Source: an uncultured delta proteobacterium (GTDB taxonomy: Bacteria; Desulfobacterota; Binatia; UBA9968). Taken from it: a stretch of 64,000 nt of DNA. Shown piece after piece: positions 41,947-47,290 of this stretch. The number at the start of each line of letters is the position of its first letter. The stretch's first letter is position 1. The notes below the pieces were generated by a model. The model searched no databases, was not told the origin of the DNA, and was given only the letters and a program-made list of their open reading frames with translations. Both the position numbers and the translations under genes were made by a program. The stretch spans positions 32,001 through 96,000 of the forward strand of contig CAVWLW010000052.1 in the NCBI GenBank assembly GCA_963755715.1. Reading direction: 5' to 3'.

Positions 41947-42870
41947 ATGGATTACAAAGCACTCAAATGGTCGGTGCACGATAACCCGAACAACCCTGGC
42001 GAGCCTTGCATCGGCGTCATCACGCTGAGTCGCCCCGAGAAACTCAACGCCGTCGATCCGCTCATGCGCCTTGAGCTCGATGCTTTGTGTAACGAGATCG
42101 CGCGCAACTCCATCATCAAGGTCGTGATCTTGACCGGAGAAGGGCGCGGCTTCTGCGCTGGCGGCGATCTTAAGTCCGAAGGCGACGTGCTCGGCGCCTT
42201 CGAAGGCTCCATGGGTATCACCGGCCCGTACAAGGAGATGGCGGAGTATTTTTTTAACGATCTGCGTCACCGAGTTTTGCAAAGCGCCATGCGCAAGCTC
42301 GAAGATTTGCCGCAAGTGACCATCGCCGCCATCAACGGCGCCGCGGTCGGCGTCGGCCTGGAGATGGCGACGCTCTGCGATATGCGCATCGCTTCGGACC
42401 GCGCGCGCTTCGGTGAAGTGGCCGTGCCAGCCGGCTTCGTGCCCGAAAGCGGCGGCGCGCGCAATTTGCCCAAGCTGATCGGCGTCGGCCGGGCGATGCG
42501 TCTGATTCTGACCGGCGAGATCATCGACGCCAAAGAAGCGCTGCGTATCGGTCTTGTCGAAGAAGTGGTGCCGGCTGCCAAACTTCTCGCTACGGCGTTC
42601 GCTCTTGCCGGGCGCATCGCGGCAAATCCGTATTTATCCGTGCGCCAAGCCAAGCGGTTGGTCAAAATGTATTGGAACTGGAACCGCACCGATGAAGGTT
42701 ATCAGCAGGAGCTCGACGCCGTGCTCGAAATTACCCGAACTAAAGACTGCCAAGAGGGCATGCGCGCCTTCGTGGAGAAGCGTCCGCCACGCTATACTGA
42801 TCCTTACGCTGCCGACTGGCCGTTTCCGAAAAAGAGCCCGGCAAAAAAACGAAAAAATAGCCAACGATGA
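41947..42870 (+). CDS. Enoyl-CoA hydratase/isomerase (PaaG-like residue pattern)
   Basis: RPEKLNA, FCAGGD, AAINGAAVGVGLE, VPESGG. Confidence 0.92.
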   Translation: MDYKALKWSVHDNPNNPGEPCIGVITLSRPEKLNAVDPLMRLELDALCNEIARNSIIKVVILTGEGRGFCAGGDLKSEGDVLGAFEGSMGITGPYKEMAEYFFNDLRHRVLQSAMRKLEDLPQVTIAAINGAAVGVGLEMATLCDMRIASDRARFGEVAVPAGFVPESGGARNLPKLIGVGRAMRLILTGEIIDAKEALRIGLVEEVVPAAKLLATAFALAGRIAANPYLSVRQAKRLVKMYWNWNRTDEGYQQELDAVLEITRTKDCQEGMRAFVEKRPPRYTDPYAADWPFPKKSPAKKRKNSQR

Positions 42871-44445
42871 CGGTTTCGCCAAGTCCCTGGCACGACTATC
42901 GAGTCGTGCCGGAGAAACTAAACCTAGCGCACGATGTGCTCGAGGCGTCGATGACGCGCGGTTGCGGTTCGCTGCCGGCGCTCATCGGCGACTTCGGAAT
43001 CGTCACGTACGAAGCATTGCAGCAAGCGCGTCAACACCGTGGCCGCCGGTTTACTCGATCTGAATTTAAAACGCGGCGATCTCGTTCTCCTCAAGATGAG
43101 TAACTCGCCGGAGTTCGCTGCCGCGTTTCTCGCTGCGGTGAAGCTCGGCATCATTCCCGTTCTGGTCAACTCTCTGCTCACCGCAGTCGAGTTGACCGCG
43201 GTACTCGAACAAACCAGACCGGAGGTGATCTTCACCGAAACATCGCGCAGCGGCGCCGTGCGCGAACTTAGCGGCAGCGGTTTGTTCAAGCACGTCGTTT
43301 GTGCAGGCGAAGCGGCGGGCAGCGAAATACCATTCGATTCGTTGGCTGCGAATTCGGCCACAGCCGTCGCCACGGCCGATACGCGGAGCGATGAGCCTGC
43401 TTTCATCGTCTACACCTCGGGCACCACCGGCAAACCGAAAGGCATCGTCCATGCCCATCGATGGATCGTCGCGCTCGGAGACTTGAACCGTTTCCGCTTG
43501 CCGCCGCAAGAGGACGACGTGGTCATGGCGACAGGCGAATGGAGTTTCATCAGCGCGCTCGGGCACAATTTGCTTTTCCCGCTGCGCAACGGCGTCGCCG
43601 GCGCCATCCTTCCCGGCCGCGCCACAGCGGAAAATGTTTTGGCTGCAATCGAGAAATACAAAGTCAGCGTCCTGCATTGCGTCGCCACCGTTTACCGTCG
43701 GTTGCTTGCCATGCCCGAATTCGAAAAGCAGCACAATTTGAAGAGCCTGCGCTGCTCTCACTCCACGGGCGAAGCTCTGCGCGAAGCAACTTATCAGGAA
43801 TGGAAACGACGCGTCGGTTCCGAGTTGTACGAACACTACGGAGTATCAGAGTATCAGCTCGTCATCGGTAACGGTGTGAGAGATCCGGTGAAACCGGGCT
43901 CCGTCGGCAAACTGCTCCCGGGAGTCGGCGTTGCGATTCTAGATGACGACTTAAAACCCGTCGCTACCGGTGAGCTCGGCCAGTTCGCGATCTCGACTTC
44001 GGATCCGGGACTGTTTCTCGGTTACTACAAAGATCGTGAACGAACCGAAGCGGTGATTCGAGAGGGCTGGTATCTTACCGGCGACCTCGCCTATCAGGAT
44101 AACGAAGGCTATTTTTTCATTGCCGGCCGGCGCGACGACTGCTTCAAAAGCCGCGGCATATTCATCTCGCCGACGGAAATCGAAAATGCCCTGCAAAAAC
44201 ATCCCGCGATCATCGAAGCCGCCGTCGTTCCCGTCGCCGACGCTGACATCGGCAATAAGATTCACGCCATCGTCGTCTTAGCCGACGGCTCCGCACCGTC
44301 AGCTGAGTTCGGCCAATCCATTCGCGAAAGCCTGCGTTTTCAAATCGCGCCTTACAAAATTCCTCACCAGATCGAGTTCAGCGAAAGTCTGCCGAAAAGC
44401 GCGATCGGAAAGATCCTTCGCGCCAGTCTAGGCAAGCCGACATAG
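42867..44445 (+). CDS. Acyl-CoA synthetase, benzoate-CoA ligase-like (frameshift near 43025)
   Basis: YTSGTTGKPKG, YGVSE, TGD, GRRDD, LPKSAIGKILR; ATGA overlap with the crotonase gene. Confidence 0.92.
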
Positions 44446-44545
44446 CGAACCGGTTTTGTTTTTTATTCATCGATTTTTAACATACGCGGGTATAGAATAA
44501 CGCCTACCTCACGAGCTTAATTTTGCTGAACACGGAGGTACCGAA

Positions 44546-45561
44546 ATGAGCGACAGGAAAATCCGAGTCGGCATTATGGGCCTAGGGCAGATTGGCCGGC
44601 AGCTTTACCACCTCGCACTGGAAAAAGACGACATCGAAATCGTCGCCGTTGCCGACATCGGCAAACCGGAAATCATCGAGTATCTGCTCCAAAGTGACGG
44701 CATGGAGGAGCCGTCGTGCAAGCTTCAAGACAATTACCTGACTAGTAAAAAATTCCGCACGCGAATGTTCCAGCTGGCGCGGCCTGAGGAGGTTCCGTGG
44801 GATATTATGAACGTCGACTGTGTTGTCGATGCAACCGGGCGATATCGTCGTCGGCGCGATATGGAAGCGCATCTGCGCGCCGGCGCGAAGCGGGTCATTT
44901 TGGCGTCGCTTCCGTCAGAACCGATCGACCGGATCGTCATACCGGGCATCAATGAAGGCCACGCCACCGGCGCCGACAAAATGATTTCCGCCGGTTCGGC
45001 GACGACCAATGCGTTTGCGCTCTTGTTGCAATTTCTGGATCAGAGTTTGGGCGTCGACTATGCGTCGCTGACGACTGTGCATGCCTATTCGAGCGATCAG
45101 TCGCTGCAGGACTACGCCCACGAGGATTTTCGCCGCAGCCGCTCCGCGGCGGAAAATATCATTCCCAACAACAATGAGTCGGCGCGGTGGGTAGAAATGG
45201 TTCTACCGAAGTTTTCGGGAAAGTTGAGCGGTTACGCGCTCAACGTGCCAGTCCAGCGCGGATCGTTGCTGGACGTGAATTGCGTAATGCACGACGGCAC
45301 CGTGACGGTCGATCAAGTCAACGACGTCATGCGCGCCGCTGCTGCTCAGCAGCCGGACTTGATCGGTAGTCACCGATGATCCGATTGTTTCATCCGATGT
45401 CATCGGTTGCCGGCAATCCTTGCTCTTCGATTCGGCGCGCGACCATCAAAGCAGGAAAGAAAATCGTCAAAGTGCTGGCCTGGTACGAGAGCCTGGGGCA
45501 TGCATGCCGCGTGCTCGACGTGGTCCGGCAATACAGCAAGCTTGACGGAGGTGTAGCATGA
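44546..45561 (+). CDS. GAPDH-like protein lacking the catalytic Cys (indels near 45368 and 45435)
   Basis: GLGQIGR, DATG, GAKRV, SAGSATTN, VHAY, RRSRSAAENIIP, IVSSDVIG, WYESLGH. Confidence 0.88.
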
Positions 45562-46559
45562 GAGTTGCCATTAACGGATTTGGCCGAATCGGTCGCTCCG
45601 TGTTTCGTATTCTGGACAAGCGGACCGACGCCGAGCTGGTGGCGATCAACGACGTCTTCGACCACGATGCGCTGCGGTACTTGCTCAATTATGACACCGT
45701 CATGGGACGATTCTCGGGCACCTTGCGGCTCGAAGGCGATGAGTTGGTCACGTCGCACGGTCGAACCCGCATGCTGCGCGAAAAGGATCCGCTTAAATTG
45801 CCGTGGCGCGAGCTCGGCATCGACGCCGTCATAGAATCGACGGGGATATTCACCAGCAGGGAACAGCTTAGCAAACATTTGGAGGCCGGCGCCAAGCGCG
45901 TCGTGCTGACCGTGCCGGCGAAGGATGCGATCGATTATACCGTCGTGATCGGCGTTAACGATGACGGGCTCAAGCCGGAGCACCGGATGATTTCCAACGC
46001 GAGCTGCACCACCAATTGTTTGGCGCCTATGGCAAAGGTGCTCCATGATTCATTCGGTATCGTCGAAGGGGTCATCAATACGGTGCACGCTTATACGAAC
46101 GACCAGCGTCTGGCCGACGTGCCGCACTCGGACTGGCGGCGCAGCCGCGCCGCGGCAGAGAATATCATTCCAACCTCCACGGGCGCCGCGAAAGCGGTCG
46201 GCGAGGTGTTGCCGCAGCTGAAAGGCCGGCTGGACGGTATCGCCGCACGTGTGCCGGTGCCCGACGGTTCGGTGGTCGATTTGTTTGTCGAGCTGGAGAA
46301 AAGCGTCAATCCGGATGACGTTCATACCGCGATAAAATCTGCGGCGGCGTCGGAACGGATGAAAGGTATTTTGCAACTCATGGAAACGCCCGTGGTGTCG
46401 TCGGACGTGATCGGCAATTCCCACTCTTCTATTTTCGATCCGGCATTTACCAGCGTTACCGGCGGCAAATATCTAAAGTGCCTCAGTTGGTACGACAACG
46501 AGTGGGGATATTCGAATCGCGTCTGCGATTTGCTCGGTTTGCTCGCGCGGTGGGGATAG
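45558..46559 (+). CDS. gap: Type I glyceraldehyde-3-phosphate dehydrogenase
   Basis: GFGRIGR, SNASCTTNC, VHAYT, PTSTGAAK, RVP, WYDNEWGY. Confidence 0.97.
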   Translation: MRVAINGFGRIGRSVFRILDKRTDAELVAINDVFDHDALRYLLNYDTVMGRFSGTLRLEGDELVTSHGRTRMLREKDPLKLPWRELGIDAVIESTGIFTSREQLSKHLEAGAKRVVLTVPAKDAIDYTVVIGVNDDGLKPEHRMISNASCTTNCLAPMAKVLHDSFGIVEGVINTVHAYTNDQRLADVPHSDWRRSRAAAENIIPTSTGAAKAVGEVLPQLKGRLDGIAARVPVPDGSVVDLFVELEKSVNPDDVHTAIKSAAASERMKGILQLMETPVVSSDVIGNSHSSIFDPAFTSVTGGKYLKCLSWYDNEWGYSNRVCDLLGLLARWG

Positions 46560-46687
46560 GCCGTCTCAGCGACGGCTACACACCGGCTGCATCGAGTCGG
46601 CTTCGGCTTCGTGCTCAGTTTCGATCGCGCCAACGAAGCGATCCAAGCGCGTCGAAGGCTTGATGCAGGAGCGAGACACGCATACTC

Positions 46688-47290
46688 ATGGCTTCCTGGG
46701 TCATCGCATTCATCTCCTCGACTGGCTACTTTGGTATTTTGCTACTTATGTTGGTTGAGAACGTCTTTCCACCCATTCCATCTGAATTGATCATGCCACT
46801 CGCCGGCTTCATGGTCGCTCAAAATAAACTCACATTCCTCGGTACCACCCTGGCAGGCATGGCCGGTTCTGTCATAGGCGCGTTACCGTTTTACTATGGC
46901 GGCAAAAAACTCGGTGAGGAGCGCGTGAAGCGCTTTGCTGACCAGTATGGCCGTTGGCTGACTGTATCCAGACAAGACGTTGACCGTGCGTCGCGGTGGT
47001 TCCACAAGCATGGGGGCGCCGCTGTGTTGCTGTGCCGCCTTATCCCCGGCGTGCGTTCCCTCATTTCGGTTCCCGCCGGAATCGCCGGAATGAACTTCGT
47101 GAAGTTTCTCTTCTATACGTCCTTAGGAACTGCTCTTTGGGCTGGGTTGCTGACCTATCTCGGGTATATGCTTGGAAGTAACTTCTCGAAGGTCGGCAAA
47201 TACCTCGATCCTGTGTCGTGGATCGTATTCGGCGTAATCGGCGCCTTATATCTCGTGCGAGTTCTGATGCATAAGCGAGCGCAGGCTTGA
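46688..47290 (+). CDS. dedA: DedA family membrane protein
   Basis: ENVFPPIPSELIMPLAGF; RLIPGVRSLISVPAG. Confidence 0.95.
   Translation: MASWVIAFISSTGYFGILLLMLVENVFPPIPSELIMPLAGFMVAQNKLTFLGTTLAGMAGSVIGALPFYYGGKKLGEERVKRFADQYGRWLTVSRQDVDRASRWFHKHGGAAVLLCRLIPGVRSLISVPAGIAGMNFVKFLFYTSLGTALWAGLLTYLGYMLGSNFSKVGKYLDPVSWIVFGVIGALYLVRVLMHKRAQA

Follow-up and report, generated by a model that had tools for sequence, protein, structure and literature searches.

The enzyme glyceraldehyde-3-phosphate dehydrogenase (GAPDH) ranks among those studied most, and its bacterial form is regarded as a homotetramer. In chloroplasts, the GapA/GapB enzyme is an A2B2 heterotetramer of two paralogs, one of which has a regulatory role; catalytic activity is found in both of its subunits, and a C-terminal extension mediates the regulation by GapB. 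Erythrose-4-phosphate dehydrogenase (Epd/GapB), a second bacterial GAPDH paralog whose substrate use has changed, keeps the catalytic Cys. Outside this family, the trypanosomatid S-adenosylmethionine decarboxylase has a catalytically dead paralog that acts as its activator and is called a prozyme. Trypanosomatid deoxyhypusine synthase is reported to form a heterotetramer with a dead paralog, with an activity increased 3000-fold (PMC3663545). Here, we describe two GAPDH-family genes, A (44546-45561) and B (45558-46559), which stand head to tail, both on the plus strand, in a 64,000-nucleotide stretch (hereafter, the window) from an uncultured delta proteobacterium (Binatia, UBA9968; assembly GCA_963755715.1, contig CAVWLW010000052.1, positions 32,001 to 96,000). 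The upstream gene, A, has lost catalytic residues, evolves under purifying selection, is strictly paired and coupled with a canonical gap gene across phyla, is present or absent jointly with it, and has its conservation concentrated at the modelled interface. This conserved pair suggests an undescribed two-subunit form of GAPDH. A Cys-less GAPDH partner was found neither in full-text literature searches, the coverage of which does not extend to subscription journals and supplementary files, nor in passages of a review (PMC12041015).

Residues lost, gained, and kept by the upstream paralog

Both A and B carry the Pfam domains Gp_dh_N and Gp_dh_C and, even in its assembled 277-residue frame, A displays the domain architecture of type I GAPDH (PF00044, 2e-18; PF02800, 1.1e-28). 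The motifs and substitutions that the initial annotation had listed for A are all present, distributed over three reading frames as assembled: GLGQIGR, SAGSATTN, HAY, DFRRSRSAAENIIPNNNESAR, and LNVP in the frame opened at 44546, IVSSDVIG in the second frame, and WYESLGH in the third. A has SAGSATTN for SNASCTTNC, PNNNESAR for PTSTGAAK, LNVP for ARVP, and WYESLGH for WYDNEWGY. The motifs GLGQIGR, HAY, and IVSSDVIG are retained, as is the S-loop. The functional roles of the residues concerned, i.e., the nucleophile Cys149, the substrate-phosphate Arg231, and Thr208-Gly209 of the inorganic phosphate (Pi) site, come from the literature on the Bacillus stearothermophilus enzyme.

We counted these residues in 63 A/B pairs, in B numbering unless stated. 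Cys150, Arg231, Thr208, Gly209, and Asn314 are each present in 63 of 63 B sequences. At the Cys150 position, the A orthologs have Ala (47), Ser (12), or Pro (4), and never Cys; the copy in the window has Ala. The Arg231 position is occupied by Asn in all 63 and that of Thr206 by Asn in 60, while the positions of Thr208, Gly209, Asn314, Glu315, and Tyr318 are variable in A, as is that of Arg10. Other residues are newly fixed, i.e., Ser for Asn181 (62/63), Ser for Ala198 (63/63), and Asp for His142 (63/63). The residues retained in A comprise Gly7, Gly9, and Gly12 (the last in 60/63), Asp32 (62/63), Ser149 and His177 (63/63 each), the S-loop residues Arg194, Arg195, and Arg197, and Asn202, Ile204, and Pro205; the catalytic His176 of type I GAPDH is present in all 63 A sequences.

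The intact A ortholog of locus L005 scores 258.3 bits against TIGR01534 and fails its cut-off (367.2 bits), which is passed by B (419.9 bits) and by a third gap gene of the relatives (453.2 bits). With 186-195 bits, A also stays below the cut-offs of the Epd models TIGR01532 and NF010058 (530-539 bits). None of the NCBIfam models matches the A clade, and the PDB chains nearest to A, among whose matches is 7zq3 ("GAPDH A, chloroplastic"), are ordinary GAPDHs with about 38% identity over the full length; on these grounds, we ruled out that A belongs to a specific curated family. In public records, A-type proteins are named "glyceraldehyde-3-phosphate dehydrogenase", "type I GAPDH", or "GAPDH NAD-binding domain-containing protein".

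Joint presence and purifying selection within the genus

We examined 24 further genomes of the genus: A (70-97% identity) and B are both present in 20 of them and both absent from the other four, two of which are 98-99% complete. The order has two other families, and A was not found in any of 16 genomes belonging to them. Of the 20 congener loci, 18 contain an intact A with a length of 337-339 residues, and the ATGA overlap between the TGA of A and the ATG of B, behind a (G/A)GAGG, is found in all 17 congener loci that hold both genes. We computed pairwise ratios of nonsynonymous to synonymous substitution rates (dN/dS, NG86 method) over 16 congener loci. The median was 0.098 for A, from 111 usable pairs out of 120 (range 0.036-0.151), and 0.064 for B, from 109 out of 120. 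This set excludes L001 and L021 (frameshifted), L004 (short B), and L013 (no B), and it includes L006, from the genome G005 flagged as unpublished, on which no result hinges. Thus, A is not decaying: it is under purifying selection and its intact orthologs are kept, in agreement with the initial annotation, which had argued against decay and had named a dN/dS near 1 as a mark of a pseudogene.

A wider clade strictly paired with gap

In a profile search of 1.84 billion representative proteins, the clusters nearest to A consist of GAPDH-like proteins that read xLNVP instead of xxRVP and in which the nucleophile position is occupied by Ala, Ser, Asn, Val, Gly, or Pro. The representative matches also comprise P0124 (2089 residues) and P0148 (1455 residues), where Cys-bearing GAPDH-like domains lie inside very long multidomain proteins. 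A FastTree phylogeny sets 18 A-like representatives apart from 111 canonical sequences, with a weak support (77), and puts B in a canonical clade together with P0136 and P0140. We also considered a recent tandem duplication of B as the origin of A, and we rejected it since the tree, with this same weak support, places A with other proteins having Asn at position 231 (hereafter, Asn231), away from the clade of B.

A pattern scan of 185,579 species genomes gave at least 600 matches, 597 of them confirmed, the best 80 loci being analysed. According to the record titles, the carriers among these best 80 are "Deltaproteobacteria" and metagenome-assembled genomes of Syntrophobacteraceae, which are the closest kin of the window; many Halieaceae and other Pseudomonadales or Cellvibrionales; and Bacteroidales, Marinimicrobia, Latescibacterota, and Lentisphaeria. 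Cultured carriers exist among the Halieaceae and the other Pseudomonadales or Cellvibrionales, including Halioglobus japonicus, Mangrovimicrobium sediminis, Parahaliea aestuarii, Pseudohaliea rubra DSM 19751, and Congregibacter brevis. One of the 80 loci, L083, is a fragment and was left unclassified; of the other 79 Asn231 genes, 73 are followed by a complete canonical gap on the same strand, 4 by a gap fragment at a contig end, and 2 lie within 600 nucleotides of a contig end. A metagenome scan seeded with distant members yielded 39 Asn231 genes, with a complete gap downstream in 30, a gap fragment in 4, and a contig end in 4; in the last, L154, which is itself truncated, the gap begins 82 nucleotides downstream. 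The two scans taken together thus comprise 118 upstream-type genes (103 with a complete downstream gap, 8 with a fragment, 6 at a contig end, and L154), and among them, in genomes and metagenomes of several phyla, no clear exception without a canonical gap was found. The expectation of the initial annotation that Cys-less homologs precede gap is borne out in this way.

In 57 parsed pairs, the two genes overlap by 4 nucleotides (34 pairs) or by 1 nucleotide (14 pairs), the other nine ranging from a 10-nucleotide overlap to a 14-nucleotide gap, and Shine-Dalgarno-like purine runs precede B in most of these pairs from other taxa. The distance matrices of A and B are correlated (r=0.90, a value that none of 999 permutations reaches), therefore the pair travels as a unit; the faster-evolving gene is A, by a factor of about 1.5.

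The clade is not defined by the absence of Cys. Many of the Cys-less homologs that the initial annotation had proposed to look for exist, but the wider clade is marked by the change of Arg231 to Asn, and 11 of the 39 metagenomic Asn231 genes keep Cys. Therefore, Arg231 to Asn and the pairing with gap define the clade, and Cys was lost repeatedly within it. In a tree of 258 sequences, the 114 upstream-type ones show at least 17 changes of residue at the nucleophile position, and at least 4 changes between Cys and non-Cys; across the upstream-type genes, this position is occupied by Ala, Ser, Pro, Asn, Ile, Val, or Cys. In L110, L112, L113, L115, L117, L118, L119, L122, L130, L133, and L140, both Cys149 and His176 are kept together with Asn231, and a canonical gap lies downstream. 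Such Cys-keeping paralogs may represent a transition from active to dead partners.

A predicted heteromer of a dead and an active subunit

In the explanation that we favor, A is a member of an unnamed and widespread clade of GAPDH paralogs that abandoned covalent catalysis: the clade has no fixed nucleophile, it always has Asn for Arg231, and its Pi loop is free to vary. It retains the fold together with the dinucleotide-binding motif, S-loop, and dimer interface. A would be produced in step with the downstream canonical GAPDH via the stop/start overlap and the internal Shine-Dalgarno sequence, and would co-assemble with B, probably as A2B2, so that only the B sites would turn over glyceraldehyde 3-phosphate. 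The interface and S-loop contacts of A could then reach the cofactor site of its partner and tune activity, cooperativity, or cofactor use. We lean, with modest confidence, toward A being a non-catalytic subunit of a heteromeric GAPDH with B. The broader proposal, i.e., that many bacteria make a heterotetrameric GAPDH with two permanently non-catalytic paralog subunits and that the S-loop of the dead subunit (Pro188 to Ala or Val) reshapes the cofactor pocket and the cooperativity of the active one, is a matter on which our judgment is evenly balanced.

Of the multimer modelling suggested by the initial annotation, a B+A hetero-dimer was computed and passed its controls, although this may only reflect a memory of, or a likeness to, the solved GAPDH homotetramers, because the modelled interface is the canonical P-axis GAPDH dimer. 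The interaction prediction score from aligned errors (ipSAE) was 0.78, 0.70, and 0.71 (median 0.71) against 0.00 in each of three controls, with a pass mark that is reached by 58 of 80 solved complexes and by 2 of 110 mismatched pairs. Between the runs, at least 99% of the contacts are common, and the predicted local distance difference test (pLDDT) of the partner is 90-91. Independently of this score, the modelled interface comprises 43 residues, to which 15 of the 37 invariant positions of A belong (odds ratio 6.6, p=4.5e-6). The invariant positions of B, 16 of 108 of which are at the interface, are not enriched there (odds ratio 1.3, p=0.49). The S-loop of the canonical gap genes also varies with the pairing in loci L026-L187, where the rows are related and the counts are to be taken as a pattern and not as a statistical test. 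Indeed, gap genes with an RRSR S-loop are paired in 86 cases and single in none (two more lie behind a gap-family fragment too short to be classified, and three at contig ends), those with RRGR are paired in 17 and single in 2, and those with RRAR are paired in 1 and single in 23. An RRSR or RRGR S-loop may be a sequence marker of the paired canonical gap.

Several points weigh against the heteromer. The model indicates that A still fits a dimer interface, not that A prefers B, and it is from sequences and models that we infer the physical association of A and B, its stoichiometry, and its effect on B. Adjacency and translational coupling are also common for consecutive enzymes that form no complex. 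The pairing counts overstate the number of independent observations because the sequences are related, and the tree support for a single upstream clade (77) is weak. In both the window and the congener genome G019, A is frameshifted as assembled and B is intact. Furthermore, several residues in the former active site of A are fixed: Asn233 (63/63), Ser183 (62), Asn208 (60), Asp144 (63), His179 (63), and Ser151 (63). Because these residues are fixed and not relaxed, the pocket of A could still bind a ligand or catalyze something, and some members of the clade may be active enzymes, since 11 of the 39 metagenomic ones keep Cys and His.

These last observations feed the main rival to the heteromer, according to which A is an independent neofunctionalized protein, i.e., a non-covalent enzyme or a ligand or NAD(H) binder, forming its own homo-oligomer and working in the pathway of B, the coupling fixing their expression ratio. 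It would account for the active-site residues fixed across phyla and for the Cys and His kept in part of the metagenomic members, and it accords with the conservation of the dinucleotide motif and of Asp37 and with the genes eda, pfk, or ppc that adjoin the pair at part of the loci. However, the nucleophile position takes seven different residues with its many changes, and free variation is seen in the Pi loop and in the motif that contacts nicotinamide, which makes a single conserved chemistry in A unlikely. Moreover, the conservation is concentrated at the dimer interface instead of being spread through the pocket, and A was never found without B in the scanned loci. We therefore regard an independent function of A as unlikely, while taking it as the most serious competitor of the heteromer.

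Two frameshifts in the assembled copy

The initial annotation described A as one gene ending at the ATGA. The overlap does exist (the third-frame TGA, 45559-45561, over the ATG of B, 45558-45560), as does the GGAGG ribosome-binding site, but the assembled open reading frame from 44546 stops at the TGA 45377-45379 after 277 residues, and two +1 shifts are needed to reach the overlap. This raises another explanation, namely that A is a decaying pseudogene, a dead copy of gap from a tandem duplication, either as a family or in this genome, in which it would be truncated to 277 residues and uncoupled from B. The two frameshifts of A in the window and the two of A in G019, next to an intact B in both, speak for it, and so do rpoB, rpoC, dnaE, and uvrA, which are unbroken in the assembly of the window, so that indels are not everywhere in it. 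For the family, decay is excluded by the dN/dS of 0.10, by the 18 of 20 intact congener loci, and by the conservation across phyla.

For the copy of the window, the initial annotation had asked whether the two 3' indels are real, and they turn out to be absent from near-identical DNA in three other studies. Indeed, in the Logan contigs of three soil metagenome DNA runs (X1, X3, and X4; 95-99% identity), each contig covering an insertion site (one in X1, one per site in X3, and two in X4) is without the extra base. The insertions at 45369/70 and 45436/37 are also absent from 18 of 18 full-length orthologs examined, five of which were aligned as DNA. A public intact protein of 337 residues, P0013, matches the first frame of A at 271 of 274 positions (99%), this frame shares 97% identity with the intact L003 ortholog, and, outside the two insertions, A shows no stops and no excess of replacements. 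The same assembly breaks other genes: carB (G000:C20:19597-22764) is read as three segments, its frame changing twice within about 500 nucleotides, a second dnaE-like gene (G000:C50:177635-180233) is in two pieces with one frameshift, and the gene of an adenosine monophosphate (AMP)-dependent ligase located 5' of A (42867-44445) is frameshifted near 43025, with residues 3-55 of its 527-residue ortholog in L107 encoded in one frame and residues 55-527 in another. Because the insertions are absent from near-identical DNA and the same assembly frameshifts carB, we consider it probable that they are clustered assembly errors, the alternative being a very recent lesion in this strain. A uniform error rate was rejected given the intact rpoB, rpoC, dnaE, and uvrA versus the broken carB and dnaE-like genes; hence, the indel errors seem clustered, and no rate can be estimated from them. 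All in all, a decaying A is improbable.

In L021 (G019:C18, 1362-2371), the congener A ortholog is likewise in three frames with two frameshifts and an intact B, for which we have no explanation beyond the same cause as in the window copy.

Finally, A could be a moonlighting or regulatory GAPDH-fold protein (e.g., nucleic-acid-binding or redox-sensing) with a target other than B, as non-enzymatic roles of GAPDH are known and a dinucleotide-binding fold is retained here without catalysis, but no other partner gene is conserved in the 80 loci and the strict coupling to gap in each lineage examined indicates B as the partner of A, which makes this the least probable explanation of all.

Locus layout, neighborhood, and metabolic place

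The features of the locus are collected in Table 1. A promoter and terminator scan of 44300-46800 returned zero plus-strand predictions, with counts not above those of shuffled sequence, and is uninformative. In a soil metatranscriptome run (X15), four contigs match parts of A (44808-45085) and of B (46299-46445) at 95-99% identity. This hints weakly that a related population transcribes these genes; it is too little for a claim of expression, and carry-over of DNA is possible.

Table 1. Features of the A/B locus (window coordinates)
Feature	Position	Strand	Remarks
Shine-Dalgarno sequence of A, GGAGG	44534..44538	+	7 nucleotides 5' of the A ATG; read from the sequence
A gene, frame 1 (codons 1-274 and one base)	44546..45368	+	GLGQIGR, SAGSATTN, HAY, S-loop, PNNNESAR, LNVP
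Extra base no. 1 (either position)	45369..45370	+	+1 shift, puts TGA 45377-45379 in frame; DNA alignment with five congeners
A gene, frame 2 (TDDPIVSSDVIGCRQSLLFDS)	45371..45435	+	Translation of the second frame
Extra base no. 2, within a GCGCGC run	45436..45437	+	Second +1 shift; DNA alignment with five congeners
A gene, frame 3 (ATIKAGKKIVKVLAWYESLGHACRVLDVVRQYSKLDGGVA, then stop)	45438..45561	+	Translation of the third frame
Shine-Dalgarno sequence of gap B, GGAGG	45547..45551	+	Inside the 3' end of A, 6 nucleotides 5' of the B ATG
ATGA, 4-nucleotide overlap of A stop and B start (translational coupling)	45558..45561	+	Alike in 17/17 congener pairs
gap B, intact type I phosphorylating GAPDH, 333 residues	45558..46559	+	All catalytic, substrate-phosphate (Ps), Pi, and NAD residues present

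No third gene is conserved beside the pair, the best neighbor cluster being found in 13 of the 80 loci. Genes for acetyl-CoA synthetase-like proteins, phosphoenolpyruvate carboxylase (ppc), 2-keto-3-deoxy-6-phosphogluconate aldolase (eda), and phosphofructokinase (pfk) are neighbors in subsets of loci. The pair directly follows eda in about ten loci, mostly of Halieaceae or Pseudomonadales (e.g., L046, 3215-3988); it precedes pfk in four, one of them from Marinimicrobia (L097, 6034-7227); and it follows ppc in 11, one of them from Pseudomonadales (L061, 935-3781). The AMP-dependent ligase was ruled out as a member of the module because it is not syntenic in L027, L028, L030, and G018.

In the assembly of the window, which is 93.6% complete, B is the sole catalytically complete GAPDH found. 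The observation of the initial annotation that no pgk or tpi is adjacent holds, since the one pgk found in this assembly lies on another contig. Its suggestion that the pair may not be glycolytic is partly sustained: a third gap, of the ordinary type I, is present in most congeners and lies beside pfk in two of the four loci viewed (in G014 and G015, and not in the two loci of G018), but in other phyla the pair itself is beside eda, pfk, or ppc, and B is catalytically complete. In L024 (4760-7146) and L025 (3709-6109), this third gap is directly beside the phosphofructokinase gene; the assembly of the window yielded no third gap of this kind. Five complete or near-complete carriers from other groups have three to five GAPDH homologs each. 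Because most congeners have a third gap and these other carriers several homologs, the A/B pair is a single isozyme among several, which probably continues to act on glyceraldehyde 3-phosphate.

Comparison with known systems

If the heterotetramer exists, it would be a genetically fixed form of the half-of-the-sites behavior of GAPDH, carried by cultured Halieaceae and, by record titles, by Bacteroidota, Marinimicrobia, Latescibacterota, Lentisphaeria, and "Deltaproteobacteria". An obligate dead-subunit partner across phyla would constitute a new quaternary and regulatory form of GAPDH, and a natural system in which to study half-of-sites reactivity and the control of the cofactor between subunits. 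As cultured carriers exist, the idea of a heteromer is directly testable. It would also correct annotation, many A-type genes being named "glyceraldehyde-3-phosphate dehydrogenase" and thereby inflating the gap copy counts in metabolic reconstructions.

Compared with type I GAPDH (EC 1.2.1.12; TIGR01534; PDB 1hdg and 1gd1), A has the same two Pfam domains and about 38% identity over its full length, keeps GxGxxG, Asp32, His176, Ser148, and the S-loop arginines, and is predicted to dimerize through the canonical interface. Unlike it, A is without Cys149, Arg231 (always Asn), and Thr208-Gly209, has an altered WYDNEWGY, and was never found alone. As Epd/GapB, A is a second bacterial paralog of GAPDH, but it lies far below the cut-offs of the Epd models (TIGR01532, NF010058). 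In contrast with the chloroplast GapA/GapB enzyme, A has neither the C-terminal extension nor the nucleophile.

The trypanosomatid prozymes differ from the A/B pair in that they are eukaryotic, their genes are unlinked, and their complexes have reportedly been shown by experiment, whereas A/B is bacterial, translationally coupled, spread over several phyla, and known here from sequence and modelling. The likeness lies in the principle: a paralog free of catalytic residues is kept under selection next to the active enzyme or along with it. The nearest concept to A is the dead-paralog activator of deoxyhypusine synthase (PMC3663545).

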